A DNA stretch of 61,761 bases from Clostridiales bacterium (GTDB lineage Bacteria > Bacillota > Clostridia > Lachnospirales > Lachnospiraceae): NCBI GenBank assembly GCA_020860365.1, contig JAJBUL010000237.1, positions 1 through 61,761 of the forward strand, written 5' to 3'. The stretch's first letter is position 1. Each line of letters opens with the position of its first letter. A model generated the notes under the pieces. The model saw only the letters and a list, made by a program, of their open reading frames with translations, was not told the origin of the DNA and ran no database searches. This document shows, piece by piece, positions 45,406-61,750 of the stretch. Made by a program: the position numbers and the translations under genes.

Positions 45406-45448
45406 AGCGAAAGCATTCCTCCTGATTCTAAATATGATAAGATCATTC

Positions 45449-45478
45449 AAAAAGCCTCCGCAGCTTATGCGAAGGCTC
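45449..45478 (-). terminator. Intrinsic terminator of the SIS operon
   Basis: Minus strand agccttcgca-taagc-tgcggaggct-tttt. Confidence 0.75.
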
Positions 45479-45512
45479 ATATAATAACTGCCTTATTCCA
45501 CGTTCTTCCTTA

Positions 45513-46679
45513 TTAGTCTACCACTTCTATCGGCGAAAAGTAAGTAGGAATAAAAATTGTCGGATCCATTCCACCGCGGAACATCGGTTCACCAATTGTC
45601 GTATGACGGAAGCCCGCAAAGAGCGCTCCTGGCAGGTACGCGTAAATAGATGCCAGGAAATTCCACTCCTTTGGAGGCACAGGCATCCTGCAATAAGCTA
45701 CTTCTTCCGTAATACCCAGATTTTCCGGTGTCTGGTCACTGAATACCAGGACTTCTCTGGCTCCCCGCTTTACCATGTTATTCACCGTATCCGCGATTCT
45801 GGAAACATTATCATCATTGCTATTGATGATCACCATTTCTCCATACGCTTCGCCCGGTCCCATTAAAATATTCACATGCATATAGTTTTCGCTGTCAATA
45901 ACCGCGCAAGCGTCCCCGGAAAGCTCAATCACTTTCGCCTGTACAAACTTTGCCGCCCAGAACATGGCGCCGTCAGCTGTAAGTCCCAGATACTTTTTGT
46001 CCATCCAGTGTATCGCCGCCGCAAAGCAGGAATCTGCCATCTTCTCCCAGTCGGCAAAAAACAGGTCATGATAGCTCTGCAGTTGCTCACGCAGCTGTGG
46101 CAAACACGCTTTTCCCGTCCGCATTTCTGCCATGGCAGCCGCCAGAATGATCGTACTGATCACATTAATATAGTAAGTACGCAAACCAGCATTGTTATCG
46201 CCTGCCGGTGCATTTTCATAAAAAAGAATATCCGCCTCTTTTGCAGTCTCTGAATCTGGACTATCCGTGACAGCCACCGTAATAATTCCGTGACGTTTAC
46301 ACTGCCGCAAAGCTTCAATCGTGCGGAAAATCCGACCGGACACACTGATAAAAAGAGCAATCGCTTCAGATCCATCCTCTTCATAGTCATAGTGGCGGCT
46401 CAGCTCAATTGCCTCCACCGCTTCATATTTTACATCCGGCAGATAATAAGCAAACGCCTCCTTCACGGCAAATGCTGCAATATTTGAATCCCCGCAGCCA
46501 GTTCCGATGATATGGGTTGCCGTGCGAAAAATCGGGTTTCCAATTATCTCTTTCACATTGTTTGCGGCGCGATCAAACTGATCCATCGTAAGAGGATCCA
46601 CATCTGTACACTGTGCAAAGAAGCTGTCCTGGAAGTAAAATCTTCTGTAATATTTTTCATCATTTAACCTTTTATACAT
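45513..46679 (-). CDS. Double-SIS domain protein (GlmS-C/FrlB/AgaS-like), type B copy 2
   Basis: 'GTGCGDS', 'ISVSG', 'KVIELSG...DSENYMHVN'; no glutaminase domain. Confidence 0.85.
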   Translation of the reverse strand: MYKRLNDEKYYRRFYFQDSFFAQCTDVDPLTMDQFDRAANNVKEIIGNPIFRTATHIIGTGCGDSNIAAFAVKEAFAYYLPDVKYEAVEAIELSRHYDYEEDGSEAIALFISVSGRIFRTIEALRQCKRHGIITVAVTDSPDSETAKEADILFYENAPAGDNNAGLRTYYINVISTIILAAAMAEMRTGKACLPQLREQLQSYHDLFFADWEKMADSCFAAAIHWMDKKYLGLTADGAMFWAAKFVQAKVIELSGDACAVIDSENYMHVNILMGPGEAYGEMVIINSNDDNVSRIADTVNNMVKRGAREVLVFSDQTPENLGITEEVAYCRMPVPPKEWNFLASIYAYLPGALFAGFRHTTIGEPMFRGGMDPTIFIPTYFSPIEVVD

Positions 46680-46689
46680 CGTATCCTCC

Positions 46690-47892
46690 TCACCTCATCC
46701 ATTTTTCTTCCCTGAAATCATAGTGTCCACCAAAATATAATTTCTCATTGACAGCAGCCTGATAACCGGCCAGCAGTGCCCCCGGAATAAAATCAACAAA
46801 TGGCGACATCCATCTCTCCGGCGCCTTTGCAATCCGGCAGATCACCGGCACTCCGGCATTAGCTCTGGAGTTGTAGCTGTTTTGGGCTATATGATATAAA
46901 TCAGGAAATTGCACTTCCATATCAGCCTCCACTGCAAACGACTCTTTCTCTGAATCCGTGACAACAAGAGTTGGGCGATGCTGCGTCAGGCAGCCTGCGA
47001 TCGTGTCCTTCATACGGCCAATGCTCGGATCTGCTTCGTTGATCATCACGATTGTCCCCACCTCATCAGGGCCGCGCATAAAAAAGCTGATATGCGCAAA
47101 TTCCTCTGAATTCGTATGATCACAGTACACACCACCGCATTCAATAAATTTTTCTTCTACAAACTGGGCCGAAAAGCCCTCATTTCCATCAGCAATCACT
47201 TCAAACCTGTTCAGATTCTTCATTCGAATTGCCTCTGCAAACATCAGATCATCGATCCTTTCAATGTCTTCAAGGAAACGGAGCGTATACTCTTCCACAC
47301 TCTTTTTCACTTCACCAAAACGCTCCGTATCTATGCTTCCATTACAAAGCCCAAGATAAGCTCCCAACGCCGCTATACCTGTCATGCTGGCATAATAAGA
47401 GCGAAGTCCAGGTGTGTTGCGTCCTGTCGGCGTCTCCAGGTTATAGATATAGCCAGCAGCCTTTCCACACACAGAATCGGGTGTGTTCGTAATCAACAGT
47501 GTCTTCGCCCCATAATTGTCGGCCTTACCAAACGCCTCTGCCACACGCCCCGAGGAGCCGCTCGCACTGATCGCTACAACCAACACTGCCTCTGCCTGGT
47601 AGCCATCCAGGAGTTCTTTTTCGCTGTAGAACCGACAAAAATCCATGATATCTGGCACATCGCATTTGCTCAGGCCGCTCAGCTTCTTAAATCCCGGAAG
47701 CATCGCCCCTACGGCTGAATACGAATCTCCACAGCCGAGCAGCATCACCCGGCGGATTTTCTCCGCCTCTTTTTGCGGCAAAACCGCACAAAGCTTTTTA
47801 AGGTCAAAACTTTTTTCTGTCTGATAGGCCGCCAGGCTAATAAGATCCTGTACCTGGCGAGTCACGGAATTGCTATAGTCCTTTTTATCCAT
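46690..47892 (-). CDS. Double-SIS domain protein, type A copy 2
   Basis: 'LGCGDSYSA', 'ISASGSS', 'TPGLRSY', 'KFIECGG...EEFAH'. Confidence 0.85.
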   Translation of the reverse strand: MDKKDYSNSVTRQVQDLISLAAYQTEKSFDLKKLCAVLPQKEAEKIRRVMLLGCGDSYSAVGAMLPGFKKLSGLSKCDVPDIMDFCRFYSEKELLDGYQAEAVLVVAISASGSSGRVAEAFGKADNYGAKTLLITNTPDSVCGKAAGYIYNLETPTGRNTPGLRSYYASMTGIAALGAYLGLCNGSIDTERFGEVKKSVEEYTLRFLEDIERIDDLMFAEAIRMKNLNRFEVIADGNEGFSAQFVEEKFIECGGVYCDHTNSEEFAHISFFMRGPDEVGTIVMINEADPSIGRMKDTIAGCLTQHRPTLVVTDSEKESFAVEADMEVQFPDLYHIAQNSYNSRANAGVPVICRIAKAPERWMSPFVDFIPGALLAGYQAAVNEKLYFGGHYDFREEKWMR

Positions 47893-47942
47893 CTGTCTTC
47901 TCCTTCCTTACAGGCATAATCGTTGATGTGCCGGTTCTCCGT

Positions 47943-49235
47943 TCATGCACCTTTTCTGTTCCGATAAGATTGGCTCAATTTTAAAGCAATACATCCGAAC
48001 ACCATCGCTCCCGCAAATGTAATAATTGCAATCAGAAAATCAATCGTATAAGACCCTGTAGCGTCATAGATTGCCCCAAGAGGCACAGAAAACACTGCGG
48101 CAATCATACTGTTACCAATCATCATCACTGCCCAGATATCTGAATAATAGCGGTCTCCCACCACAGTGCGGGCAATCAGCGGCGCCTGCATGCTATACAT
48201 ATTCAATCCCGCAAAACCAGTTAAAAGACAAGCTGGCAGCAAAAACAAGGGATACTGTTTGGATAGAATCATCCCCATCATTCCCAGAGTCATAAAGCCA
48301 ACACCCCAGGCCATTCCGGCTTTGACACCATACCTGTCATTTAATCTTCCCAGCAAAAAGCCGCTGATCACGGAACCGATACTGCAAATACAGGCTGCGA
48401 CGGAGCCATAGGAAACACTGGTTCCCAATTCCATGGTTGCAAATGTAGCAATATAGCCAGGCATCGAACTGCCGACGCTATAGCAAAGACAGGCCACCCA
48501 GGCAAAATAAAACATTGGCATAACAACGGCCTGCTTACGCGTCACACCCCAGCTCTGCTGCAGCCGTGCTTCGCCTGCCCGGGCAGGCGAACCTGAGAGA
48601 GATCCAGCCTCTTCTTGCCCATAAGGGCTGCATTTCATCTCCTCTGGACTTTTCAGGTGTAAGAAGACATAAGGCAAAGCGATTACCACCGGAAGCAGAG
48701 GCAAAATATGATACGCACTCCTCCACCCAAGATGCTCAATCAGCTGCGCGCTAAGTAAAGTAAAAAGAATCGTAAAGGCGTTTCCACTGGCAACACAGAT
48801 ACCTAATACCGTTCCTGTCTTCTTTTTAAACCACATGTTAATGATCAATGGCATGGCCATATACTGCGTAAATGCGGAGCCAATTCCGATCATGACAGCA
48901 GATACATAAAAACCATTAATCGACTGGTAAGACCCCATCAGGAACATACCCAAAAGCATCAGAAAGAGAGCCGGCACCACCACAAGTTTCAGTTTATAGG
49001 TAGTCAAAATCCGCCCCGCTACAGGATAAAGTACAGCCATCACTGCACACTCTATCCCACTTACGATCGTCATCTGTCGGACAAGAATACCAAATTCTTC
49101 CACAACCGGAGTGACAAAATTCCCGATACTGACATTAATAATACTGGTAGAAAAATAAATTAGAATACAGCAGACCATGATTGTCCACGCATAGTGTTTT
49201 TCCTGCATATTCGCTTTTTTCATATGATCGTTCAA
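47943..49235 (-). CDS. MFS transporter
   Basis: About 12 hydrophobic segments; 'INMWFKKKTGTVLG', 'LGRLNDRYG'. Confidence 0.9.
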   Translation of the reverse strand: MNDHMKKANMQEKHYAWTIMVCCILIYFSTSIINVSIGNFVTPVVEEFGILVRQMTIVSGIECAVMAVLYPVAGRILTTYKLKLVVVPALFLMLLGMFLMGSYQSINGFYVSAVMIGIGSAFTQYMAMPLIINMWFKKKTGTVLGICVASGNAFTILFTLLSAQLIEHLGWRSAYHILPLLPVVIALPYVFLHLKSPEEMKCSPYGQEEAGSLSGSPARAGEARLQQSWGVTRKQAVVMPMFYFAWVACLCYSVGSSMPGYIATFATMELGTSVSYGSVAACICSIGSVISGFLLGRLNDRYGVKAGMAWGVGFMTLGMMGMILSKQYPLFLLPACLLTGFAGLNMYSMQAPLIARTVVGDRYYSDIWAVMMIGNSMIAAVFSVPLGAIYDATGSYTIDFLIAIITFAGAMVFGCIALKLSQSYRNRKGA

Positions 49236-49314
49236 ACCTCTTACCCTCGCTGTCTATTGCACATACAATGATTGGAGTGTGAGCGCTCCATTCCTGACCT
49301 TTTCCCTGGTATCA

Positions 49315-50520
49315 TCATGATCTCAGATTAAAAACATATTGATCTAGGCGGTCAAATGCCTCCTGCACCAGACTAAAAGGCAGCGCCAGATTCAGACGAA
49401 TCGCATAGGGGCGATGGAAAGGACGACCATCCTGCCAGATGACACCAACCTCCGCGCCCGCATTTAGTAACTCGTCCAGACTCTTTTTGTTCGCCAGGCA
49501 CCATTTTTCACAGTCCAGGTACATCATATAAGTTCCCTGTGGATGGTAAAGCTCCACGCCGTCAAAATGCTTTTCAATAAAATCATACGCGTAAGAAACA
49601 TTCTGACTCAGAACCTCACAAAGCTCATCCACCCAGGTCGCACCCTCATCGCTATAGGCGCCAATCAGTGCATGCATAGACAGCACATTCATATGATTGT
49701 AACCTGATTTGCTGCCCTGTGCCCGCACACGGTCTCTCAGATAGCTGTTATAAATAATATGATAAGAACCGATAAGTCCTGCCAGGTTAAATGTCTTAGA
49801 CGGCGCATAGAGTGCGATTGTCCGCATTTTCGCGTCCTCTGAGACAGACTGTGTCGGAATATGACGATGCCCGTCCAATAGAATATCCGACCAGATCTCA
49901 TCAGAGACGACAATGCAGTCATTCGCCGCATACACTTCCATCGCTTTTTCGATCTCTTCCTTCTCCCACACACGGCCGCACGGATTGTGCGGGGAACAGA
50001 ATACCGCCAGATGGATCTGGTACTGCTTCAGCTTGCGGTCCATATCCTCATAGTCCATCCGCCACACTCCATCCGCGTCCCGGATCAGATCCGTGAGAAT
50101 AATGCGATACCCTGCCCTCGTCAGATCATTCGTAAACCCGATGTAGGTCGGGCTGTGCAATAACACATAGTCCCCCTGTGAGCAAAACGCATTCGCGGCA
50201 CTGAGCATCCCTCCCAGCACGCCATTCTCATATTTAATGCATTCCGGTGTCAGGTCTTCCACTCCATTGCGCTCCTTCTGCCAGCGAATAATCGTGTCGT
50301 AATATGCCTCCGACGGAGAATAATACCCAAACGCCGGATGGGCTATCCGCTCTGCCATGGCTCTGGTTACAGACGGCGCGGTAGCAAAATTCATATCTGC
50401 CACCCACATCGGGATCTGAGAAAAGCCCTCTCTGGTAATTCCATTCTCGTATGGAATATTATCCACCGCCATGGCGTCTTTTCCTCTCCGATCCATGATT
50501 GTTGTAAAATCATACTTCAT
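49315..50520 (-). CDS. MalY/PatB family PLP-dependent C-S lyase / aminotransferase
   Basis: 'PMWVADMNF', 'CSPHNPCGRVW', 'SDEIW', PLP lysine in 'APSKTFN'. Confidence 0.92.
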   Translation of the reverse strand: MKYDFTTIMDRRGKDAMAVDNIPYENGITREGFSQIPMWVADMNFATAPSVTRAMAERIAHPAFGYYSPSEAYYDTIIRWQKERNGVEDLTPECIKYENGVLGGMLSAANAFCSQGDYVLLHSPTYIGFTNDLTRAGYRIILTDLIRDADGVWRMDYEDMDRKLKQYQIHLAVFCSPHNPCGRVWEKEEIEKAMEVYAANDCIVVSDEIWSDILLDGHRHIPTQSVSEDAKMRTIALYAPSKTFNLAGLIGSYHIIYNSYLRDRVRAQGSKSGYNHMNVLSMHALIGAYSDEGATWVDELCEVLSQNVSYAYDFIEKHFDGVELYHPQGTYMMYLDCEKWCLANKKSLDELLNAGAEVGVIWQDGRPFHRPYAIRLNLALPFSLVQEAFDRLDQYVFNLRS

Positions 50521-50521
50521 G

Positions 50522-51793
50522 TTACTTTCCTCCCAGTTTCTTGCGTTGTTTTTTCGACATGGTTACCGCACAGGCGCCAGTCAAAAATGCACCAATATAG
50601 AGAAGCATTCCCATGACAAATGCGCCGCGATAGCTTCCCAAGCGATCGTAAAAAAGTCCGATTGATGAATAAAGTCCACCACCAATCAGGCTGTTTGCCA
50701 TCATCATAATCGCCCATATCTCTGAATAATTCTTAGAGCCGACAATACTCCTCGCCAGCAAAGGACACTGAACCGTATACATACTTGCCCCAAGGCCAAC
50801 AATAAAAGCCCCTGGAAGAACCAGCATAGGAGACTGCTTGCTCAAAAGCATAAGCAGGTAGCCGACTGTCGTCGTAGCCGCTCCCCAGGTCAGGCCATAG
50901 ACTACACTAAACCGGTCATTCAGCTGCCCGAGTATCAGGCTGCTTCCAATCGTACCTACCGCCAGCGCAATACCCGCATAAGATCCGAAATTAATGGTCT
51001 GTCCCAGCTCCATCGTCGTGTAGGTCACAATATAGCCGGATACTCCACTACCATAAATGTACATCAGGCACGCCGCCCACGCGACATATAAAAACAGAGA
51101 GCCAAATGCCTGTTTCCGTGTCAGCCCCCACTCGGAAGATACTGTGCTTCCATCCGAAGCAATACTCTCTTCCTCATCCTCCCCATAGGGTCTGCACCCT
51201 GCCTCCTGTGGACTCTTGATCAGCAGAAACACCGGCAGTATGGTGATCACTGCACCCATTGCGGCCATAATCAAATACGCGTTCCGCCAGCCACAGGCGG
51301 TGATCAGCCTGGCGGACAGAAAGCTGTAGAAAATGCCGGCACCACTGCCCACCGCCACCACTGTCCCGAGCACCGCACCAGCTCTTTTATGGAACCACAT
51401 ATTTATCACGATCGGCATTGCGACAAATCCAGTAAACGCCTGTGCCACACCGATCAGCGCCCCGGAAAAATAGAACATATAAACCGAATGATAGGTAGAC
51501 ATCAAAGCGACGCCGCAGGTCTCTGCTATGACCGCAATTCCCATCACGAACCCGATTCTTCTGGTAGTGAGGACTTTTGCCGCTGTCGTGTACAGCAAAG
51601 CCATCGCAACTGCCTCAATGCTGACGAACATCGTCAGCTGGCTCACCTGACACCCCAGTTCATTGACAATCGGCGTAATAAAATTGCCCATGGCAGCGCC
51701 TGTCACTGCGGAAGATCCTATTTTGATCATAATGCAGGCAAACATAATCTTCCAGGCATAATGCTGCCTGCCATTACTTGTCTTTGTACTCAT
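50522..51793 (-). CDS. MFS transporter (paralogue of 47943-49235)
   Basis: 'HYAWKIM', 'MGNFITPIV', 'INMWFHKRAG', 'WGLTRKQA'; same motifs as its paralogue. Confidence 0.9.
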   Translation of the reverse strand: MSTKTSNGRQHYAWKIMFACIMIKIGSSAVTGAAMGNFITPIVNELGCQVSQLTMFVSIEAVAMALLYTTAAKVLTTRRIGFVMGIAVIAETCGVALMSTYHSVYMFYFSGALIGVAQAFTGFVAMPIVINMWFHKRAGAVLGTVVAVGSGAGIFYSFLSARLITACGWRNAYLIMAAMGAVITILPVFLLIKSPQEAGCRPYGEDEEESIASDGSTVSSEWGLTRKQAFGSLFLYVAWAACLMYIYGSGVSGYIVTYTTMELGQTINFGSYAGIALAVGTIGSSLILGQLNDRFSVVYGLTWGAATTTVGYLLMLLSKQSPMLVLPGAFIVGLGASMYTVQCPLLARSIVGSKNYSEIWAIMMMANSLIGGGLYSSIGLFYDRLGSYRGAFVMGMLLYIGAFLTGACAVTMSKKQRKKLGGK

Positions 51794-51818
51794 ACTAAAC
51801 CTTTCCTCTCTTCACTCT

Positions 51819-52244
51819 TTACTCTTCTCCAGCCTCAATAAATCCGTCCATCGCAGCATCCAGATAGTCAGCAAACTGCACCTGGTATTCCTCTGTATGC
51901 AGACTCTCGGTCGCCTGGAATAATATGGTAAAAATAAGGAACACAATTGCCATTCCCACTATGGAATTCAGGAGACTGTGATTCTTTAAAAAGGGGAGTC
52001 TGCTGCGAAGCGGCGTGTCTGAAAGGAAGATCATCGGGCTCAACATCCAGAGAAAAATCACGAGAGATGACAGTTTCATCACCAGTGTATCCCAGATACT
52101 CGCTGGAACCAGAGGCGGGGTGACCATGCATAGCACAAAAACAGCCACACAGCCAATATAATAGCATACGGCAAGTATACTCTTCCATGGTGTCCCGCTC
52201 CGAAATCCAAAAAGAATCTTCTTTCTTTTTTTCTGCCCGTCCAA
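51819..52244 (-). CDS. Hypothetical membrane protein (about 3 TM)
   Basis: 'GFRSGTPWKSILA' followed by hydrophobic segments; in the operon. Confidence 0.65.
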   Translation of the reverse strand: MDGQKKRKKILFGFRSGTPWKSILAVCYYIGCVAVFVLCMVTPPLVPASIWDTLVMKLSSLVIFLWMLSPMIFLSDTPLRSRLPFLKNHSLLNSIVGMAIVFLIFTILFQATESLHTEEYQVQFADYLDAAMDGFIEAGEE

Positions 52245-52278
52245 TCCCTGTCACCCCACATGTTTTGCATTTTTCATG

Positions 52279-52307
52279 CAGGTCTTCGCAGCAAATGCGA
52301 AGACCTG
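52279..52307. other. Intra-operon stem-loop
   Basis: Perfect 12-bp stem caggtcttcgca-gcaaa-tgcgaagacctg; no U-tract on the coding (minus) strand. Confidence 0.6.
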
Positions 52308-52329
52308 TTTTAAATAATACCTCTTGCTT

Positions 52330-53163
52330 TTATTTTGAGTCGTCCTTTGCCAGTTCTTCTTCCAGTTCACGAATTTTTCTCACATATTCGGCCACAATTT
52401 CACCCACCACTGGGCCTCCCCATTTTCCGCCTTCAAAAGCAGAGCCTACCAGCGCCCCATCCGCATAGCGCAGTCTTCGCTTACAGTTCTCTACATTTGT
52501 GCCTCCGCCCAGGATCACCGGGATCGGTCCGACTGCCTTTACATCTTTTACCAGGCGCTCATTCATCTCCTCATCACTGTGAAGGACTTCTACTGCGTCC
52601 GCTCCAACACGCATGGACATCCCTGCAAGATTTCGGATATTCTCAGGGCTATATTCGCCTTTGAAATGATAGCCCGAAACCTCCGCGAGCATCGCAACGC
52701 CCTTCGCATTGATTTTCGCCCGGTATTCCATTACTTTCAGCGGATCCGCATTGATGACACCCCCAAATGGAGAAGGAGTCGAGCCTACCAGTGCTGTGCA
52801 ACGGATGAAATCCGCCCCGGTCGCCTTCGCTACCGCCAAAGACGGAGTAATACAGTTCCACATCAACTGCACACCCATCTTAAAATCCGGTCCCACCGCG
52901 TCACGGACGCGCGCGGCAACCATCGCAAGTGTAGCCACACGGGCATAATCCGTATCATCGCCAACTGGATATACATTATCCACAGACTGCAGCAATCCAC
53001 CATCGGCTCCATTTGCTTTCAGGGTCTGGCAATCCTGAATCGCTTTCCTGGTCATCTTATCCAGATTTCCTTCTTCATACTGTGCCGTTCCCGGCATTGG
53101 AAGCAAGTGCACCAGACCGATCACGAGTTTTTTCCCATTCAAATCTTTAAACATACTCTCCAA
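52330..53163 (-). CDS. BtpA/SgcQ family TIM-barrel protein
   Basis: 'VIGLVHLLPMPG', 'ATGADFIR', 'PVILGGGTNVEN', 'DGALVGS'; start TTG 53163 or ATG 53154. Confidence 0.87.
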   Translation of the reverse strand: MESMFKDLNGKKLVIGLVHLLPMPGTAQYEEGNLDKMTRKAIQDCQTLKANGADGGLLQSVDNVYPVGDDTDYARVATLAMVAARVRDAVGPDFKMGVQLMWNCITPSLAVAKATGADFIRCTALVGSTPSPFGGVINADPLKVMEYRAKINAKGVAMLAEVSGYHFKGEYSPENIRNLAGMSMRVGADAVEVLHSDEEMNERLVKDVKAVGPIPVILGGGTNVENCKRRLRYADGALVGSAFEGGKWGGPVVGEIVAEYVRKIRELEEELAKDDSK

Positions 53164-53174
53164 CCTCTCTCCTT

Positions 53175-54134
53175 CTAGTTGTTTTTATATTTTTTATAAA
53201 GTTCCTCCGCCATCGCATAACACTGCTCCCGCACACCAAGCATATCCGGAATTGCCCCATACTGATTGATATTCATCGCGGAACCTACATTCGCCATAAT
53301 GCCAACCATCAGAGGATCCTTTCCTTCCGCATACGCGTAAAGTGCTGCGCCGGTCGAAGTATTTCCACAGCCGGTCGGATCAACAACAGTGCAGGGTGCC
53401 GGCGGAAGGTAGTAAGCCGCATCCGGTGTCACACTGTACAGGCCTCTGCCGCCGACACGAAACAGCGTAAAACTGACAGGAAGCTTCTGGAGCTCGGCAA
53501 TGCAAGCTTCATCACCTTCTACCTCAAACAATCGCTGTGCTTCCTGAATATTCAGGCTGAAAATATCTGCCACTTCTGCCGCGCGGTAGATATTTTCCCG
53601 GAATTCTGGAAAAGCTACAGACCCTTCCAGCTCCCACATCATGCAGAATCCATCTCGTTCCTTGATCCTGCGAATTTTCTCCCAGAATACACGGTCACAG
53701 TTCTGAGCCAGATACACGCCCTTTACACCGCCTTTTTCTGTCAGAGCGCCAATGTCCTCCGGTGAAGTCTTCATAAACCCAAAATCTTCCCAGCGGGTTC
53801 CCCGCCGCAAAAAACTCTCGTTTTGCGAATTACTCGGAGCAGCGCCAGCCATCGCTCCGCCCTTTGTTTCATAGGTAATATAGGAGTGATTGCAATGATC
53901 ACACACAACTTTCAGAAAAGACGTATCTACTCCGTTTTTTTCTACCCATGGAGCAAAAATTTCCTCGTAGTCCGCCCCAAGCTTGCTACACTGAATCACG
54001 CTGTCCGTCCAGATTTTGATTCCTGTATAGGCAAATGTAGCCGGTCCCCCAATGTGCTCTCCGTCCGAACCGGACCCATCTGCAAAGGATACGCTGTCTA
54101 TCATCACATTGCCAGCCGCTATATATTCTGCCAT
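53175..54134 (-). CDS. PfkB/ribokinase family kinase, MAK32-like subgroup
   Basis: 'GNVMID...IGGPATFA', 'FSLNIQEA', anion-hole motif 'DPTGCGNTSTG'. Confidence 0.85.
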   Translation of the reverse strand: MAEYIAAGNVMIDSVSFADGSGSDGEHIGGPATFAYTGIKIWTDSVIQCSKLGADYEEIFAPWVEKNGVDTSFLKVVCDHCNHSYITYETKGGAMAGAAPSNSQNESFLRRGTRWEDFGFMKTSPEDIGALTEKGGVKGVYLAQNCDRVFWEKIRRIKERDGFCMMWELEGSVAFPEFRENIYRAAEVADIFSLNIQEAQRLFEVEGDEACIAELQKLPVSFTLFRVGGRGLYSVTPDAAYYLPPAPCTVVDPTGCGNTSTGAALYAYAEGKDPLMVGIMANVGSAMNINQYGAIPDMLGVREQCYAMAEELYKKYKNN

Positions 54135-54249
54135 CTCTTACCCCTTTCTTTTCCTGTATTCCCTGTGTTCTTACTCATTTTTGTTTTTCTTTTTTCACAT
54201 TCTTTCGTTTCCAGTGTATTCCCGTTTTTTCCAGTATTCTCTTTTCCCG

Positions 54250-55377
54250 TCAGATTACAATTATCTCACTGGTTGCAATCGTAAACACAGACGGGTCTAC
54301 CTTTTCCGCTGTTCCGAAATAAGCGCTCCCCTGCTGCACTGCACGATAGGAGGCAAGCAGCGTCCCCGGAATATATGCGTACAATAATCCCAAAAAGCGA
54401 TAGTCCTCCCTGGGCAAAGGAATCCTGCAAAATCCAACCGGTGCAGATATGCCAACTTCTGATGGTTCTTTATCGCAAATCAAAAATACATAACGTCCTT
54501 TTGAATATGCAAACATTGCTGCATCTGCGATCCGTCCGATATTCGCCTCATCACTCCACGCCAGGAGCATTGTCCCATAGGCCAGTTCCGGTGCAATCAT
54601 ATTATTTACATGGAAGAAATTTTCCGAATCAATGACGGTACACTTGTCACCGGACGCTTCCGCAAATTTTGCTGAAACAAATTCCGCGCATGCAAACTGT
54701 GGACCATCCGCAATCACCTCAAATCCTTTTGCGGACTTCATTTCTTCCGCCGCCGCCTGGCAATCCTCATCTATCCGGTCGAACCTGCGCATAAAAAGAA
54801 CATGATACTCTAGCAAAGCCTCCAAAAGCTCTGTACAGGCTTTGGTATCTCCACTTCTGACTTCCGACAGAACGGCCGCAAGTATGAGCAAAGAAAGCAT
54901 GGACGCATAGTAGCTGCCCAGTCCAGGTGCATCCGGAGCAATTTTCGTCAGATAAATATAATCAGCTGCCTTCGCCACGCGCGATTCTGCGTTGTGTGTA
55001 AGTGCAACCGTCATACATCCGTGCTTTTTCCCTCGCTCCAAAAGCTCCACCACCCGCGCGGAACCGCCTCCGGCACTGACCGCCACGATCAACGTGTTCG
55101 GCTCCTGCTCTTCAAGCGGGAGATACCGTGTCGCTTCGATAATCCCAGGCGCCATCACCTGACAGCCATCTCCAAGATAAAAAGAAAATGCCTGTAAAGC
55201 CTCCACACAGGCCAGATAGGAATCCCCACAACCGGACAGAATGATGCGATCTATCCGCCTTAGTTTTTCATCAGGCAACAATCCCCGGAAATGCGCGAGT
55301 GCAAAATCAAATTGTGTGATTGCCTGATCATCCAGGCTACGGCACAGATTTCTCAATTTATTCTCCGTATATTCCAT
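54250..55377 (-). CDS. Double-SIS domain protein, type B copy 1
   Basis: ATG 55377 after AAGGAG; 'SGCGDSY', 'VSAGGGS', 'KFAEASGD...DSENFFHVN'. Confidence 0.85.
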   Translation of the reverse strand: MEYTENKLRNLCRSLDDQAITQFDFALAHFRGLLPDEKLRRIDRIILSGCGDSYLACVEALQAFSFYLGDGCQVMAPGIIEATRYLPLEEQEPNTLIVAVSAGGGSARVVELLERGKKHGCMTVALTHNAESRVAKAADYIYLTKIAPDAPGLGSYYASMLSLLILAAVLSEVRSGDTKACTELLEALLEYHVLFMRRFDRIDEDCQAAAEEMKSAKGFEVIADGPQFACAEFVSAKFAEASGDKCTVIDSENFFHVNNMIAPELAYGTMLLAWSDEANIGRIADAAMFAYSKGRYVFLICDKEPSEVGISAPVGFCRIPLPREDYRFLGLLYAYIPGTLLASYRAVQQGSAYFGTAEKVDPSVFTIATSEIIVI

Positions 55378-55393
55378 CTCCGTCTCCTTTCTG

Positions 55394-56524
55394 TCAGCCA
55401 AATGACATATTCCACTTCTGTGTCCTGTAATCATACCTTCCGCCAAAAAACAGCTTCTCTGCCACCGCTGCGGTGTATCCCCCCGCCAGAGAGCCGGGGA
55501 TAAAACTAACCAGAGGAAGTAGCCATTCATAGCCTTCCGGGGGCGCAGGGAGCCGACATACAGTAATACGTTCATCTGTCAGAGAACTCACATTGTCAGT
55601 CACCAACAGCACCGGTCGCCCCAGCGCTGCCGCGGAATTTGCGCTCTCCAACACCCGATTGTAATCTGGCTGTGAGCGAAACGCGTGAAAAATCGTTCCT
55701 ATCGTCTGTGGTTCTTTCAGGAAAAACGGAATATGACACCAGTCTTCCGCATCTGTATGTGAGCACTGTGTTCCGGCACACTCAATAAATTTTTCCTCTA
55801 CAAATTGTGCAGTAAAATAATCGGGGCCATCCCCAACAATATCAAACCGCGTAAAATCTCTCCATTTTACGGAGAGATTGAAAACAAGATCATCGATCTC
55901 CTCCAGACATTCCCTATAGCTCGACACATAGGCTCCTGTCACTCGTTTTATCTCTTCGAACCTGTCATCACTCAAAAGACCTTTACAGCGTCCGATGTGT
56001 GTCCCCAACGCAACAATTGCAACCATATTAGCGAAATAAGAGCGCAAGCCAGGTGTATTGCATAACTCCGGCGTCTCCGTAGCATAAAACAATTCCGCGG
56101 CTTTTGCACCCTTTGATTCCGGGTTGTTGGAAATCAGCATCGTTCTCGCTCCAGCATCCTTACTGCACTCCAGTATTTTGACAATGCGCTCGGAAGAACC
56201 GCTCGCGCTGATCGCCACGGTCAGAGCGGCTCTGCCTCCGGTAATTTTCTGATTCGTCCAGAAAGCTGTATAATCCATCGGATCCGGTGCAAAGGTCGCT
56301 GAAATTCCTGACAGGGCGGCAAAAGCCGCCCGCATCGCGCCGGCCGCGGAGTAGGAATCCCCACAGCCGGTTAACACTACCCGTTCAAGAGCAGCAAATT
56401 GTTCTCTCGGCAGAATCGCATCTAGTTTCGCGGTGGAAAAACAGTTTTCCGCCTGTATGACCGCAAGCTCCGGAAGGCTGTTTACCTGAAGCGTCACGGT
56501 GTTATAATAATCCTGTCTGTTCAT
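55394..56524 (-). CDS. Double-SIS domain protein, type A copy 1
   Basis: ATG 56524 after GAGGAGG; 'TGCGDSYSA', 'ISASGSS', 'TPGLRSY', 'KFIECAG...EDWCH'. Confidence 0.85.
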   Translation of the reverse strand: MNRQDYYNTVTLQVNSLPELAVIQAENCFSTAKLDAILPREQFAALERVVLTGCGDSYSAAGAMRAAFAALSGISATFAPDPMDYTAFWTNQKITGGRAALTVAISASGSSERIVKILECSKDAGARTMLISNNPESKGAKAAELFYATETPELCNTPGLRSYFANMVAIVALGTHIGRCKGLLSDDRFEEIKRVTGAYVSSYRECLEEIDDLVFNLSVKWRDFTRFDIVGDGPDYFTAQFVEEKFIECAGTQCSHTDAEDWCHIPFFLKEPQTIGTIFHAFRSQPDYNRVLESANSAAALGRPVLLVTDNVSSLTDERITVCRLPAPPEGYEWLLPLVSFIPGSLAGGYTAAVAEKLFFGGRYDYRTQKWNMSFG

Positions 56525-56564
56525 CTGTCCCTCCTCTGTGTCTATCATATGCCTTATTACGTTG

Positions 56565-57524
56565 TCATGGCTTTGTTGCGGTTCCCTTCATCTCCTCCAA
56601 CTTCTTCATATTCTTTCGAATCAGTCGTTCTTCCGCGCCAGAACGATAACCGCTCATCACCAGATAGACCACCGTCGCCAGGGCAAATGGCAATGCGAGC
56701 AACAGATACGGGTCTGTAACTACGGTAGATAAATAATTTGATGTTGAATAGGCAAGGCCAAAAATAAAACTCACCAGCAATGCGCCAATCGGCTCAGAAT
56801 TTCCAATTGTCGCAGCCGCCATACCAACAAAACCCTTACTGGCCGTCAACCCTTTTGAGAAGAAATTCTGATAGCCCATTGACAGGTACATACCTCCGAA
56901 ACTGCCTACCGCAGCCGCGATCACAAACGCGATCGTATAAATCTGCTTTGTCTTAATTCCAACTGACTCCGCAGCCGCCGGATTCTGCCCGATCGCCCGC
57001 ATTCTCAGCCCCAACTTTGTGCGGTACAATAGGAACCACACCGCAAATGTCATAATAAATGCCAGATATGTGAACACATTATGTCCAGAAACTATTGCGC
57101 CAATAATCGGGATGTTTTTGATAATCGGAATATTCACATCGCCTAGCGCCAGGCTGTTAATCGCTCCCGCCGTGTTTGCCTTCGTTCCTGTGATAACCCA
57201 CATTACAAAAATTGTACCTCCGGTTAACGCCATATTCATGGAGATTGACATCAGATAGAGGTCTACTTTCATTACAAAAGCGGCAAAGCAGATAATCAAC
57301 ACCACCACGACCGAAGATAACATTCCAATCAGGATACCCAGCCACACATTTTGAAAGGCAGCGCTTGCGATCACACCAGACAGAGCGGAAACAAGCAGCA
57401 TACTTTCTCCTGCCATATTCATCAAACCTGCCTGTGAAGAAATAGTTGAACAGATCGCAATAAAAATAATAGGTGTTGAGATACGGATTACAGCATAGAT
57501 AAAGCTTGTAATACTGCTCAGCAT
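56565..57524 (-). CDS. Nucleoside/simple-sugar ABC permease (NupC/YufQ-like)
   Basis: 'STPIIF...AGLMNMAGE', 'RTKLGLRMRAIGQNPAAAESVGI'. Confidence 0.88.
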   Translation of the reverse strand: MLSSITSFIYAVIRISTPIIFIAICSTISSQAGLMNMAGESMLLVSALSGVIASAAFQNVWLGILIGMLSSVVVVLIICFAAFVMKVDLYLMSISMNMALTGGTIFVMWVITGTKANTAGAINSLALGDVNIPIIKNIPIIGAIVSGHNVFTYLAFIMTFAVWFLLYRTKLGLRMRAIGQNPAAAESVGIKTKQIYTIAFVIAAAVGSFGGMYLSMGYQNFFSKGLTASKGFVGMAAATIGNSEPIGALLVSFIFGLAYSTSNYLSTVVTDPYLLLALPFALATVVYLVMSGYRSGAEERLIRKNMKKLEEMKGTATKP

Positions 57525-57527
57525 AGA

Positions 57528-58619
57528 TTAAGCCACCTCCTCCTGACTTTCTTTCGAAGCTTTGATGATGGATTTCTGACGCGCTTTGCTCAGGAAGCCC
57601 TCCGCCGCCACGAAGAAAATAATCACGGCCTGTAGCATTGTCACCATCTCGACCGGTATGTTTGTATTTGTATTCAATACAGCTGCCGCCGTCCGGATAT
57701 AGGCCATTACAAAAGCAGTCAGCGGAACATAAAGCGGTGACTTTTGTGCCATTACCGCGATGATCAGTCCGTCCATACCGATATTCGTCAGAGCCGTCAA
57801 CTGATAATTGTTGTATGCACCAAAGACCTCTACACACGCAGCCAAACCGGCAAAAAGGCCACCCAGGAGCTGTCCCATAAATGGAACAACCTTTACATTA
57901 ATCCCGGCGTACTTCGCAAACGAGGGGTTCGAACCGGTCAGGCGGATTTCCACGCCCAGTCGAGTGCGGTAAAAAATAACAATCGCTACGATCACACCGA
58001 TCACTGCTAACCAGAATCCATCATGCGCGTTGGTATTACCCCACCATCTTGCAAAACGCATGTTGTCCGGATACGTCTTAGACGCGATAAAGGACAGCGT
58101 CCGGTCAGCCGCATATTTACGGATCAGAGACAAAGCTATATAAAGACATACACTATTCAATACGATAGATGTTACCGTCTCATTCGCACCAAGCTTCTCA
58201 CGGCCGGCAGCCGGAATCATGGAGACCACGCCGCCTGTCAGCATACAGGTAACCGCGATCAGGGTAATATTCACGATCCATGGCAGGTTTGTCATAAATG
58301 TTGTATTAAACATAACCAGGATAATCGGTACTGGTGCAATATTAATAATTCCTTCCGCAATCATACTAAAGCGTCCGCTTGCATAAACAAAACACATACC
58401 GCAGCCACAGAGCATATACGGACCCCATCTGGAGAGTACCTGCGCAAACCGCCGTCTTGAAGTAAACGGCCCGATTGCGAAATTATATACCGCATCTCTC
58501 CAGCCATCCGCGCCAGTGACCAGACAAATAATCACAAGGCATACCGCATATGCGATAATAATTCCGAGGACAACTCTTAAAAACGTGTAAAAATGATCTA
58601 TCCTCTGCACTTTCTTCAT
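57528..58619 (-). CDS. Nucleoside/simple-sugar ABC permease (NupB/YufP-like)
   Basis: 'GANETVTSIVLN', 'RTRLGVEIRLTGSNPSFAKYAGIN', 'GMDGLIIA'. Confidence 0.88.
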   Translation of the reverse strand: MKKVQRIDHFYTFLRVVLGIIIAYAVCLVIICLVTGADGWRDAVYNFAIGPFTSRRRFAQVLSRWGPYMLCGCGMCFVYASGRFSMIAEGIINIAPVPIILVMFNTTFMTNLPWIVNITLIAVTCMLTGGVVSMIPAAGREKLGANETVTSIVLNSVCLYIALSLIRKYAADRTLSFIASKTYPDNMRFARWWGNTNAHDGFWLAVIGVIVAIVIFYRTRLGVEIRLTGSNPSFAKYAGINVKVVPFMGQLLGGLFAGLAACVEVFGAYNNYQLTALTNIGMDGLIIAVMAQKSPLYVPLTAFVMAYIRTAAAVLNTNTNIPVEMVTMLQAVIIFFVAAEGFLSKARQKSIIKASKESQEEVA

Positions 58620-60166
58620 TGTAAATCCCCCATTTCCTCCGGGGTCATCCTTCTGACGCCCAGCATATACTCTCCAAGCACCTCATCGGTGACCGCCTTT
58701 ACGTTATGAAATTGGGCAACAATTTCCCCGTCTTTCATCACCAGCAGCCGATCGGAGACCTCCATGATTTCATTCAGATCGGAGGAAATCAGCAGGACGC
58801 CTCGGTTGAACTCTCTGGTATACTTCACCAACAGCCGTCGGATCAGATCCGAAGTCCCTACGTCAATGCCTCGAGTCGGCTGATTTGCAATGATAAAATT
58901 CGCATCCCCAGAGAATTCTCTGGCCACGATCACCTTTTGAATATTACCGCCTGAAAGAAATTTAATATTTTCATTTCCATCACTGCAGGCCACTTCAAAG
59001 TCTTTGATCGACTGATCCACAAACTCGTTCAGTTTCTTCATATTTAAAAATGGTCCCTTGCTAAACTCTCCCTTTGTCAGAGAAGTTGCTACCAAATTAT
59101 CCCGAATTGACAGATCTCCAGCGATCCCATATTTCATGCGATCCTCTGACACATGCGCAAGACCAAGGTCACGGATTTTTCGGATCGAGAGACCATTGGT
59201 CTCTTTTCCATGCAGCTGGAGACTTCCGGATGTACGCTCAATGATACCGGAAAGAAGCTCTGAGAGCTCGGTCTGGCCATTTCCTTCGACCCCGGCAATT
59301 CCTACCACTTCACCCGCACGAACACCGAAACTCAGATCCTTAATAATCTGCTTTCCAAAATGATCCAGATAATTCAGCTTTTCTACATGAAGGATCGTTT
59401 TCTCTGGCCTTGCCGGTGCTTTCTCAATCGTCAGATCCACTTCACGCTCTACCATCATCTTGGACATCTTCGCCGTGTCCAGATCTTCGATCGCCGCCTG
59501 TCCGGTAACTCTGCCATGCCGCAATACGGTACAGCGGTCACACAGCTCCATCACTTCTTCTAGCTTATGCGAAATAAAAACAATTCCATGTCCCTGCTCA
59601 CGCAATAACTTCAGCTGAATAAACAGTTCCCTCGTCTCCTGCGGTGTCAACACAGCGGTCGGCTCGTCCATAATCAGCACATTAACATTACGAATCAGTG
59701 CTTTCAGCAGTTCTACTTTCTGCTTCTGCCCTACTGTCAGGTCACGGATCAGTGCATTCGGATCCACCTCCATCTGGTATTTCTCTATCACTTCCCGGGT
59801 CATTTCCACCGCTTTCTTCTTGTCAAAAAGCATTCCTTTCCCCGGTTCCATACCCAGAATCACATTCTCTGCCACAGACAGATTCGGCACCTGCATGAAA
59901 TGCTGGTGAACCATACCCACGCCCTTGGCAATCGCGTCCAGCGGGCTCGCAATCTGCGTTTCTTCCCCATTTATGTAGATTTTCCCTTCCTGATGGCTCT
60001 CAAGACCAAAAAGAATTTTCATCAGGGTGGTCTTTCCGGCTCCGTTTTCACCAATCAGGCCATGTATCTCACTTTCATTGATTGAGAAGGTTACGTCTTT
60101 ATTGGCCATAAATCCGTTGGGATAAATCTTTGTGATTCCTTCCATCTTCAATAATTCTTTTGCCAT
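58616..60166 (-). CDS. Nucleoside/simple-sugar ABC ATPase, tandem domains (NupA/YufO-like)
   Basis: ATG 60166; 'GENGAGKTTLM', 'GMVHQHF', 'DEPTAVLTPQE', 'LSGGNIQK', 'QPTRGIDVG'. Confidence 0.93.
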   Translation of the reverse strand: MAKELLKMEGITKIYPNGFMANKDVTFSINESEIHGLIGENGAGKTTLMKILFGLESHQEGKIYINGEETQIASPLDAIAKGVGMVHQHFMQVPNLSVAENVILGMEPGKGMLFDKKKAVEMTREVIEKYQMEVDPNALIRDLTVGQKQKVELLKALIRNVNVLIMDEPTAVLTPQETRELFIQLKLLREQGHGIVFISHKLEEVMELCDRCTVLRHGRVTGQAAIEDLDTAKMSKMMVEREVDLTIEKAPARPEKTILHVEKLNYLDHFGKQIIKDLSFGVRAGEVVGIAGVEGNGQTELSELLSGIIERTSGSLQLHGKETNGLSIRKIRDLGLAHVSEDRMKYGIAGDLSIRDNLVATSLTKGEFSKGPFLNMKKLNEFVDQSIKDFEVACSDGNENIKFLSGGNIQKVIVAREFSGDANFIIANQPTRGIDVGTSDLIRRLLVKYTREFNRGVLLISSDLNEIMEVSDRLLVMKDGEIVAQFHNVKAVTDEVLGEYMLGVRRMTPEEMGDLQ

Positions 60167-60293
60167 GACATCCCTTTCCGTATCTCTATACTGACTGAGC
60201 AGGCGGCAGCTATTTCGCCTCCTGCTCACACATAGGCCGCATCTGACACTGATCAGAAATATTTCTGTCGCGTCCCTGTGCATTATAATACCT

Positions 60294-60322
60294 GCGGGGT
60301 AAATGCCAGGCATTTACCCCGC
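60294..60322. other. Perfect 14-bp inverted repeat after the BMP gene (stabilising hairpin or attenuator)
   Basis: gcggggtaaatgcc-a-ggcatttaccccgc. Confidence 0.7.
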
Positions 60323-60364
60323 TTCATGGTCTGTTTTCACTTGACCTCACATTAAGCCGTTTTC

Positions 60365-61486
60365 TCACTGGTCACGGTACTCTTCAAATTCCTCATAGGT
60401 ATCAAAATCATAATAAGAAGGAACCTCAATCTCGCCACTTCCAATCTTATCAATGATATCATAAATCACTTCACGAACTTCCTCCGGTGTATTCTCCAGA
60501 TAATAATCGTTCTCCAGAATTCCTACGCCATCCTCCGCTACACCGTACAGCCGGTTGCCTGTCTCAATGCTCCCATCGCCAGACTCTACACTGTCAATGA
60601 TCGCTTTTGCGCATGGTGCAATATTCTTTGTGATCGAAGTGAGGATGTTTTCATACCCAACCGCCGACTCACTACCTTCGTCAGCCAGACTCTTGAAATA
60701 GGAATACTGGTCATAATCGCATCCCATAATGAAGTAGCCTTCTTCAATTCCGCCGTGCTCTTCCGCTGCCTGTGCCGCGCCAAGCATCATCTGCGCTGTG
60801 ATTGGCCATACCACGTCGCACCCGCTGTCATACATTACATTCATCTGCTCATATACAGCGGACATACTGGTCTCAACCAGATACGCATGCAGATATTCCA
60901 CATCCAGCCCCAGATCATTCTGCGCATACCGTGCACCCGCAAGCCATCCGGTACTGAAATCGTTCAAAATCGGGCTATCGGTAGAGAGAACACCGATCTT
61001 TCCGACTTTTGTCATCTCAGCCTGCAAAATAGCCGCCACGAAAGAGCTCTCATTCTGTGCAAAAGAAATGCCGTAAATATTATCCCCCTCATAAACCGTA
61101 TCACGGCCAGTATCATAGAGAATAAATGTCGTATCCGGATACTCCGCAACGGTATCATTCAGAATATCTGAAATATACCAGTCTGGTCCAAGGAAATAAT
61201 CATAGTGTGTCGTTTCCAGAGCGTCATAGAAGCTGTTTACAGCCAGAGCCGCATCATATGATCCATACTCTACCAGGGTCATATCCCACCCATACTCTTC
61301 ACAAACCTCCTGTGCCGCGCTGTAACCCATATCCGACAGGCCAAAGTCCCCAATAAATGCAGTAAAGAACAGCAGCTTCTTACTTCCCTCTTCAGCCAAA
61401 GCTGTCCCCGGCATTGCTCCCAGGGCTGCTGCTGCCACTCCTGCCACTGAACCACGCAGAAAATCTCTTCTGGATATTTTTTTCAT
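60365..61486 (-). CDS. BMP (basic membrane protein/PnrA-like) solute-binding protein with a twin-arginine leader
   Basis: 'SRRDFLRG'; 'IGDFG', 'FAQNESSF', 'MGCDYDQ', 'ILTSITKN'; SD GGAGG. Confidence 0.88.
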   Translation of the reverse strand: MKKISRRDFLRGSVAGVAAAALGAMPGTALAEEGSKKLLFFTAFIGDFGLSDMGYSAAQEVCEEYGWDMTLVEYGSYDAALAVNSFYDALETTHYDYFLGPDWYISDILNDTVAEYPDTTFILYDTGRDTVYEGDNIYGISFAQNESSFVAAILQAEMTKVGKIGVLSTDSPILNDFSTGWLAGARYAQNDLGLDVEYLHAYLVETSMSAVYEQMNVMYDSGCDVVWPITAQMMLGAAQAAEEHGGIEEGYFIMGCDYDQYSYFKSLADEGSESAVGYENILTSITKNIAPCAKAIIDSVESGDGSIETGNRLYGVAEDGVGILENDYYLENTPEEVREVIYDIIDKIGSGEIEVPSYYDFDTYEEFEEYRDQ

Positions 61487-61722
61487 GTTACTTTTCCTCC
61501 TTTTTTGAGTTTATTATACGGCCATAGACAGCACCGCTTACTCACACATTTCTGTTCATTATCTGTTCTTCCCGTTCTTCTAGATGTTCATTTAATTTGT
61601 ATTTCATCCAAAGAGAACATTATCAAAAAGCAAAACAACACAATATTTGCTCTTTTCCGTTCATATTTGTTTGGAAAGTTTGTTTTCACCCCCCCCTAGC
61701 CCCTTTATTTTTGTGTATTTTT

Positions 61723-61750
61723 ACTATAATATCATTTTTTTATTTGTCAA
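61723..61750 (-). promoter_or_regulatory. Putative sigma-A promoter of the BMP/SIS operon
   Basis: Minus strand TTGACA-N16-TATAGT. Confidence 0.55.

Follow-up and report, generated by a model that had tools for sequence, protein, structure and literature searches.

A putative 14-gene operon of a Lachnospiraceae bacterium with a conserved core, ordered double-SIS gene pairs, a GxGN kinase, and a nucleoside-type importer, possibly serving ribose-conjugate scavenging

The window analyzed here is the whole contig JAJBUL010000237.1 (61,761 nucleotides [nt]) of a 4.28-Mb, 95% complete assembly (GCA_020860365.1) of a Clostridiales bacterium of the family Lachnospiraceae. Between positions 45513 and 61486 it carries 14 open reading frames (ORFs), all on the minus strand, for a nucleoside-type ATP-binding cassette (ABC) importer with a BMP-family binding protein, four double-SIS proteins (A, B, A′, and B′), a PfkB-fold kinase, a BtpA/SgcQ-family protein, a membrane protein, two major facilitator superfamily (MFS) transporters, and a MalY/PatB-like pyridoxal phosphate (PLP) enzyme. 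Because it recurs in many genomes, the set is more than a chance assembly, and on sequence grounds it is a real, conserved catabolic system. Its four SIS proteins are, by the same kind of evidence, an uncharacterized GlmS-fold subfamily arranged as two ordered pairs. The explanation that we favor, with confidence a little short of even, is that the operon scavenges N-linked ribose (pentose) conjugates with a nonflat aglycone, by a logic like that of the fructosamine (frl) systems but not with hexose Amadori products as substrates.

Species genomes were scanned with an 89-row SIS alignment; 180 stretches were confirmed, and the best 80 were kept, giving 63 loci (numbered with the prefix L). Counts out of 64 refer to these loci plus the window; the loci end at 10 kb or at a contig end, many are kin, and a few come from one genome. 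An importer gene, a kinase gene, and at least two SIS genes occurred together in 37 of the 63 loci, the count being 24 with BtpA added, 13 with MFS added, and 4 with MalY added. The co-occurrence that a sequence-only reading of this DNA had proposed surveying is thus found. Their sources include Lachnospiraceae, Oscillospiraceae, Erysipelotrichaceae, Anaerovibrio, Limnochordia, and a Bacillus. The family is rare and patchy: it was present in 3 of 400 other genomes of the same phylum and in 2 of 24 genomes of the same genus, where the other matches were weak and lay in frames of 500 to 670 amino acids resembling GlmS. A profile search returned 344 clusters at an E value of 1e-30. The sequence-only reading had recognized no described pathway, and none turned up in literature searches: the SIS-kinase-BtpA cassette was not described in the open literature searched (most subscription papers and supplements lay outside the search), searches on BtpA and SgcQ gave nothing relevant to the operon context, and those on the combination of SIS, deglycase, and nucleoside gave no matching pathway in the open literature. 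Sequence searches of the PDB found no close relative for any operon enzyme.

The features of the operon, in the direction of transcription, are as follows.

61723 to 61750, minus strand: sigma-70-like promoter, TTGACA-16-TATAGT, with a leader of ~240 nt (pattern scan; position similar in relatives)
60365 to 61486, minus strand: BMP/PnrA-family substrate-binding protein with a twin-arginine-like (TAT-like) signal (Pfam, structure-guided residue comparison)
58616 to 60166, minus strand: ABC ATPase, two-domain sugar/nucleoside type (Pfam/NCBIfam)
57528 to 58619, minus strand: ABC permease 1, BPD_transp_2 (Pfam)
56565 to 57524, minus strand: ABC permease 2, BPD_transp_2 (Pfam)
55394 to 56524, minus strand: double-SIS protein A, alpha type, GlmS fold, with D56, R113, K245, E248, and H264
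54250 to 55377, minus strand: double-SIS protein B, beta type, predicted partner of A (tree, complex model)
53175 to 54134, minus strand: PfkB-fold kinase, GCGN (N258) replacing GAGD (Pfam, fold, motif)
52330 to 53163, minus strand: BtpA/SgcQ-family protein, QxVD variant (Pfam/NCBIfam)
52283 to 52302, no strand assigned: core of a 12-bp intergenic hairpin, a small dispersed repeat
51819 to 52244, minus strand: 141-amino-acid membrane protein without a family (conserved in 19 of 64 loci)
50522 to 51793, minus strand: MFS transporter 1 (Pfam/NCBIfam)
49315 to 50520, minus strand: MalY/PatB-like PLP enzyme (TIGR04350, 299 bits; cutoff, 340)
47943 to 49235, minus strand: MFS transporter 2, 41% identical to MFS transporter 1 (Pfam)
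46690 to 47892, minus strand: double-SIS protein A′, alpha type (identity, trees)
45513 to 46679, minus strand: double-SIS protein B′, beta type (identity, trees)
45450 to 45478, minus strand: intrinsic terminator-like hairpin and U tract (fold inspection)

All 14 co-oriented genes listed in the sequence-only reading were present in the order that it gave, and its labels agreed with the Pfam matches (Bmp, ABC_tran, two BPD_transp_2, four SIS, PfkB, BtpA, two MFS_1, and Aminotran_1_2); the specific NCBIfam models all scored the window operon proteins under their own cutoffs. Relative to the longest ORFs, likelier start codons lie at 60166 (ATPase), 56524 (SIS A), and ~55377 (SIS B), and with likely starts the intergenic gaps are, in gene order, 198, -4, 3, 40, 16, 115, 11, 85, 25, 1, 79, 50, and 10 nt.

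The SIS proteins comprise 375 to 400 amino acids and have no N-terminal glutaminase domain. The predicted model of SIS A (predicted local distance difference test score [pLDDT], 97) was a GlmS-type double SIS that matched Escherichia coli GlmS with a Z score of 39.6 (root mean square deviation [rmsd], 2.7; 346 residues aligned), the structure 2cb0, which has the glucosamine 6-phosphate (GlcN6P) deaminase fold, with 34.2, FrlB (8glr) with 28.9 (rmsd, 3.1; 314 residues aligned), and FraB with 25.7. The isomerase domain of GlmS and the SIS-type GlcN6P deaminases GlmD and NagB-II are thus the closest in fold. In the set of 160 SIS ORFs (at least 340 amino acids) drawn from the 63 loci and the window, seven residues were invariant (D56, S106, G109, K245, E248, E260, and H264), and the spacing between E248 and H264 was 16 in all 160. 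In the alignment, K245 corresponds to GlmS K485, and E248 and H264 correspond both to GlmS E488 and H504 and to FrlB E233 and H249; equivalents of GlmS S303, S347, S349, and G350 are also kept. Passages of PMC10285752 describe such a 16-residue Glu-His rule, with a mechanism of isomerization followed by Schiff-base hydrolysis, and in those of PMC12359202 the FraB Glu and His come from opposite subunits and FraB G231A is inactive.

The differences from these enzymes were equally consistent. The HGP loop after the catalytic His was found in none of the 160 rows, and the Glu that anchors the His (FraB E85, FrlB E98) was replaced by Arg (R113) in 155 of 160, with E107 of E. coli FrlB falling in that column. 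GlmS T302, D354, and G500 are Asp, Arg, and Glu in the window SIS proteins, which are 17 to 18% identical to GlmS and, over partial alignments, 19 to 27% identical to E. coli FrlB. With the FrlB-type model NF008481 (cutoff, 430 bits), B scored 21 bits and B′ 24.6 bits, and A and A′ were unlisted at an E value of 0.001. No conserved C-terminal Lys was found in the column of GlmS K603, where the C-terminal alignment is loose; given the role of K603 in GlmS, the nitrogen handled by the SIS proteins is likely substrate derived. Since the Glu/His pair is kept and the HGP loop, the Glu anchor, and the Lys are missing, the SIS proteins likely act like deglycases or deaminases and yet are not FrlB, FraB, or GlmS.

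The known fructosamine systems (E. coli frlABCD, Bacillus subtilis frlBONMD, and Salmonella fra) share with the window an importer, a PfkB-type kinase, and a double-SIS protein with trans-acting Glu and His 16 residues apart; Salmonella gfr is also a fructosamine system. The window differs in its SIS proteins (no HGP, Arg for the Glu anchor, and a GxD-S motif), its GxGN kinase, its nucleoside-type BMP importer, its two different SIS subunits in an ordered pair, and its BtpA partner (YjbQ in many relatives). By these sequence features, the operon is not an frl/fra system.

The pairing of A with A′ and B with B′ that the sequence-only reading had made held up (41.5% and 36% identity within types and ~29% between them); the reading had missed that the SIS genes form ordered alpha-beta pairs. 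A tree of 121 of the 160 rows plus GlmS placed first genes in an alpha group (types E, A, and A′) and second genes in a beta group (D, B, and B′). In a 25-row IQ-TREE analysis, the A-plus-A′ and B-plus-B′ clades were both supported at 100/100, beta at 100/99, and alpha at 90/99; alpha was unresolved in a 68-row tree. An approximately unbiased (AU) test of the 25-row set did not reject a clade of A plus B, that is, of all YjbQ-less SIS genes together (P = 0.057), so that at this deeper level the alpha/beta split is favored but not proven. Among 69 alpha genes (window and L016 to L062), 66 had a beta gene as the next gene, and the other 3 lay at locus edges. The modeled A-B complex scored 0.94, against 0.00 for the best control, with contact agreement between runs of at least 96% and a partner pLDDT of at least 89; the score mark applied is reached by 116 of 157 solved complexes and by 2 of 215 mismatched pairs. 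The modeled interface includes residues 243 to 248 and 258 to 270 of A. A and B, and likewise A′ and B′, are predicted to form heterodimers.

The nearest structures to the window BMP protein were BmpA, a streptococcal-type lipoprotein set, BmpD, and TmpC, and it shares the Pfam family Bmp with the PnrA/TmpC/BmpA/BmpD nucleoside importers. In the relevant passages of PMC13325309, Asp98, Asp225, and Lys242 contact the ribose, and Phe27 and Phe176 cradle the base. The ribose contacts map to D125, D257, and K287 of the window protein and were kept, together with Phe151, in all 33 related BMP proteins. At the position of the base-stacking Phe27 the window protein has L50, and 6 of the 33 relatives have Phe; Asp19 and Asn28 are T42 and S51. 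The Phe176 site falls on Y202 by pairwise alignment and on T206 by the family motif. Since the ribose contacts are kept mostly without the base-stacking Phe27, the residue pattern points to a ligand that is a riboside or a pentose bearing an unusual aglycone. The window protein has a TAT-like signal without a lipobox cysteine, whereas its relatives have a lipobox; the TatC match in its own genome contains one stop (G000:C325:5503-5880). In L039, three BMP paralogues keep the Phe27 site, and an atypical nucleoside hydrolase adjoins them.

The kinase scored above the cutoff of PF00294 and has a ribokinase fold (Foldseek TM score, ~0.7), and its top profile match was 3kd6, titled a nucleoside kinase. 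The GxGN motif was present in 80 of 81 kinases of the genome loci and in 26 of 30 from distant loci, where the three GAGD kinases were those with BtpA and without YjbQ; RbsK and FrlD have GAGD. The Asp of GxGD is the catalytic base of PfkB kinases, and an N-terminal Asp, which binds the ribose diol in ribokinase, was kept in 67 of 75 kinases. MAK32-like kinases carry a GAGN motif; for the MAK32 label of the sequence-only reading, no such profile was among the Pfam/NCBIfam matches of the kinase, the GxGN motif alone was checked, and literature searches on MAK32 turned up nothing of use. Five GxGN kinase paralogues lie in tandem in L050 (13892-18714).

A metagenome scan with 10 distant representatives (best 80 of 316 matches), together with five other loci, gave 39 groups at 90% SIS identity. 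YjbQ was found in 33 of these groups, a kinase in 24, a nucleoside hydrolase, a phosphorylase, and an ADP-ribosylglycohydrolase in 17 each, a deaminase in 5, and a deoxyribosyltransferase in 4. Any nucleoside or ribose enzyme occurred in 27 of the 39 distant groups and 16 of the 64 genome loci, compared with 2 of 170 tiles of the window's own genome. The hydrolases and phosphorylases near SIS relatives lean to pyrimidines, and adenine deaminases and ADP-ribosylglycohydrolases are common too; PsuG was found in L076 (1 of the 103 loci counted), and a PsuK-like gene was found in L017. A Rhizobium plasmid locus combines a ribokinase, a nucleoside hydrolase, a GGGN kinase, SIS, YjbQ, and a uridine-phosphorylase-like gene, and a kinase-SIS-BtpA-BMP operon of Mesorhizobium lies near a dihydropyrimidinase. 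The plasmid matches L081 and L083 were dropped as having unrelated contexts. The Bacteroidetes ribose utilization systems described in 10.1101/574913 recover ribose from a variety of linkages and have kinases, nucleoside hydrolases, and ADP-ribosylglycohydrolases similar to those around the distant SIS relatives, but other transport machinery, and the passages concerned name no SIS-YjbQ/BtpA-GxGN module.

Several further arrangements were seen around the relatives. PfkB-ADP-ribosylglycohydrolase fusions (L101:232-2079 and similar) recur beside the distant SIS-YjbQ cassette, as do 5-formyltetrahydrofolate cyclo-ligase-like genes (14 of 39 groups). TrpF-like (phosphoribosylanthranilate isomerase) genes (L072:3616-4329 and L074:13599-14294), canonical PfkB kinases, and a nucleoside hydrolase adjoin the cassette; TrpF carries out an Amadori rearrangement on a ribosylamine phosphate. 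The setting is one of ureide catabolism in L173 (8437-19319), where a GAGD kinase-SIS-BtpA-DeoC block is accompanied by AllG/AllH, a hydantoinase-like gene, and an M42 peptidase. Two identical reverse transcriptase ORFs, presumably of the group II intron type, lie inside and beside a relative's five-SIS cluster (L012:99-1562 and 9314-10777).

The accessory genes vary. BtpA scored 127 bits with PF03437 (cutoff, 30) and 119.9 bits with TIGR00259 (under its cutoff of 153.4), and it is 25% identical to E. coli SgcQ. The sugar-phosphate operon sgcXBCQAER of E. coli also includes a member of the BtpA family, sgcQ, whose only annotation is that of a putative nucleoside triphosphatase, but it has phosphotransferase system uptake and neither a SIS gene nor a PfkB kinase. 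E. coli yegTUV stands with the Bacteroidetes ribose utilization systems among the known systems closest to the window operon. In L082 (8980-10954), on a Streptosporangium plasmid, a BtpA gene whose product is 43% identical to that of the window and has the same QxVD variant accompanies a related SIS gene; queD, queE, folE, and genes for nucleotide modification lie next to them, and the locus could not be linked to any known product. YjbQ/UPF0047, which the sequence-only reading had missed as a usual member of the wider cassette, alternates with the SIS genes (alpha-YjbQ-beta-YjbQ) in 44 of 64 loci, and the window belongs to the YjbQ-less subtype. A 2026 preprint describes yjbQ as without a clear function, and our literature searches on YjbQ found no function for this context. 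A transporter without a Pfam match, which we take to be GRP-like, occurred in 27 of 44 YjbQ loci and in none of the 20 YjbQ-less loci. In the window's own genome (95% complete), no YjbQ, close DeoR orthologue, GRP-like transporter, or E/D-type SIS was found, nor was PsuG (one query). The MalY protein scored under its TIGR04350 cutoff and has the SKTFN motif with the PLP lysine. MalY occurred in 7 of 64 loci, namely, in 7 of the 20 without YjbQ and in 0 of the 44 with it; at least three gene arrangements were seen. The idea that MalY/PatB processes a released amino-acid moiety is kept as a proposal, with the gene reduced to an accessory. MFS homologues occurred in 26 of 64 loci, often adjoining SIS pairs. 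The 141-amino-acid membrane protein had no family match in the scans.

The analysis itself shows which genes are present, how they are conserved and ordered in pairs, what folds and residue patterns their products have, and what lies around them; every reaction, the heterodimer, and the substrate are inferred. In the favored scheme, the ABC importer would take up N-linked ribose conjugates, and the GCGN kinase would add a 5′-phosphate. At its interface, the alpha-beta SIS pair would then catalyze, through Glu and His, ring opening, isomerization, and imine hydrolysis to yield a pentose 5-phosphate and an amine. Candidate substrates would be ring-opened or reduced nucleosides (ribosyl-ureides and products of dihydrouridine), as well as the ribulosyl or ribosyl amino acids that arise when ribose or ADP-ribose causes glycation; each SIS pair may prefer different aglycones. 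BtpA may act on a phosphosugar intermediate, MalY may degrade the released amino-acid moiety, and the MFS proteins may move aglycones. The import, phosphorylation, and SIS-mediated processing of N-linked sugar conjugates put forward in the sequence-only reading fit the conserved Glu/His pair and the co-occurrence data; what changes is the sugar, the hexose Amadori option being narrowed to ribose or pentose. That preference follows from the ribose contacts of the BMP protein, the nucleoside-enzyme neighbors, and the lack of FrlB and FrlD signatures in the SIS proteins and the kinase.

Several observations weigh against ribose-conjugate scavenging as just outlined. The nearest known enzymes are only ~20 to 25% identical. 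The kinase has no catalytic Asp, so that its activity is a putative one. In the BMP protein, F48 may stand in for Phe27, and the Phe176 site is ambiguous. Only 2 of the 20 YjbQ-less loci of the window subtype have a nucleoside enzyme; the ribose link thus rests mostly on relatives, and the sugar handled by the window pairs may since have changed. The references used for these counts were drawn from the very loci counted, related loci are not independent and inflate the counts, and a single genome served as the control; the neighborhood is therefore a strong lead and not a statistical test. The complex score, compared without a homodimer control, may reflect memory of the solved GlmS and FraB homodimers; since GlmS-type homodimers are solved, the passing A-B model may show likeness only. 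The window MalY falls outside the clade of six other cluster-linked close copies.

Among the alternatives, the one that survives best, although we consider it unlikely, is that the substrate is modified in the sugar (a pentose with a 2′-O-methyl or 2-amino group, or an epimeric one, whether free or in a nucleoside) and is processed by a hydrolase and a kinase, after which the SIS proteins remove or invert the C-2 group as GlcN6P deaminases do, yielding ribulose 5-phosphate. The same BMP ribose contacts and neighborhood data fit, the fold is common to GlcN6P deaminases (2cb0), DeoC follows SIS-BtpA in L173, 2′-O-methyl nucleoside catabolism is largely unexplored according to passages of PMC12709175, and an aldolase is paired with a 2′-O-methyluridine hydrolase in those of PMC6278475. 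However, the kinase Asp for the ribose diol is mostly kept (67 of 75), the window has no nucleoside hydrolase, MalY and the multiple kinase and SIS paralogues are left unexplained, and no precedent was found for enol-ether demethylation by a SIS protein.

A divergent system of the frl/gfr/fra type, handling Amadori or Heyns products of hexoses (PMC10221552) and with each of the two pairs serving different amino acids, would take up the first option of the sequence-only reading. The kinase with Glu/His double-SIS architecture, the MalY and MFS genes of the YjbQ-less subtype (MalY in 7 of 20), and R161, which lies near the FraB K133 region that binds the amino-acid carboxylate in passages of PMC12359202 (a presumed equivalence), all suit it. 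It is nevertheless improbable: HGP is absent from all 160 rows, while the G231A change abolishes FraB activity; Arg takes the place of the FrlB Glu anchor in 155 of 160; NF008481 scores of 21 to 25 bits stand against a cutoff of 430; the FrlB and FraB Z scores (28.9 and 25.7) lie under that of GlmS (39.6); FrlD has GAGD; and the importer is of the nucleoside type.

A PsuG-independent route for C-ribosides (pseudouridine derivatives), in which SIS proteins open the ring and isomerize and YjbQ or BtpA cleaves the C-C bond, would suit the pyrimidine lean of the neighboring hydrolases and phosphorylases, the PsuG and PsuK-like genes of L076 and L017, and an own genome without a PsuG match (one query), but we give it little credence, as PsuG turned up in just 1 of the 103 loci counted, the lost base-stacking Phe suits an aromatic base poorly, and adenine deaminases and ADP-ribosylglycohydrolases are also common neighbors. 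Equally doubtful is a window composed of two unrelated units, a conserved block of importer, SIS, kinase, and BtpA genes and a recruited block (MFS-MalY-MFS) that would have a different substrate (e.g., cysteine S-conjugates): MalY is in only 7 of 64 loci, that of the window is as close to an unlinked paralogue in its own genome (64%) as to the cluster MalYs (57 to 63%) and outside their clade, and a repeat hairpin follows BtpA, but MFS homologues (26 of 64 loci) often lie directly beside SIS pairs, MalY recurs, arranged in at least three ways, in 7 of the 20 loci without YjbQ and in 0 of the 44 with it, and it is separated from MFS transporter 1 by 1 nt.

The promoter-like site and the terminator-like hairpin of the sequence-only reading were both found. 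The promoter-like site at 61750 to 61723 was the top site of the scan (11 of 12 consensus positions), and 7 of 9 relatives had a comparable site 252 to 284 nt ahead of the BMP start, but the scan overall gave no excess (28 sites versus 25 expected by chance). The terminator-like hairpin at ~45478 to 45450 has an 11-bp stem and U5, but it was undetected by the pattern scan, and the fold of its 121-nt region was not better than those of shuffled sequences (z = -1.35). Only 275 nt separate the BMP gene from the contig end, no Rfam match was found across 42000 to 61761, and the 10 upstream regions compared had no operator in common apart from the ribosome site. The 12-bp hairpin that separates btpA from the membrane protein gene (z = -3.9) belongs to a small dispersed repeat with six near-identical palindromes on other contigs; the terminator has the same core. 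Directly beyond the terminator, at 42928 to 45405, a short UvrA-like protein (~825 amino acids) is encoded that passes TIGR00630 and fails NF001503; its gene is outside the operon unit. A 214-amino-acid ORF at 39943 to 40587 matches only positions 1 to 198 of 275 of the NifH model, under the cutoff, and may be a truncated NifH or a NifH-like reductase.

In its boldest form, which we regard as possible but distinctly doubtful, the scavenging of ribose conjugates would be an undescribed cross-phylum pathway whose substrates are ribosides, damaged, reduced, or glycated, that nucleoside hydrolases and phosphorylases cannot cleave and whose product is ribose 5-phosphate, with an Asp-less kinase, a fixed SIS heterodimer, and YjbQ and BtpA as alternative third enzymes. 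A cultured carrier of a window-type cluster, Anaerofilum hominis BX8 (L017), makes ligand screens and induction tests feasible, and a confirmed route would be new. The scheme links three families of unassigned function, YjbQ/UPF0047, BtpA/SgcQ, and the GxGN kinases, to one testable chemistry; if it is true, the YjbQ and BtpA families would gain their first physiological reactions. The SIS heterodimer would then be a hard-wired counterpart of the FraB conformational heterodimer, and natural SIS heterodimers would be material for studying why the two active sites of SIS enzymes are unequal. For the anaerobes that carry it, the operon would mean recovery of ribose from the breakdown of modified or damaged RNA and from glycation products, a little-studied nutrient pool.

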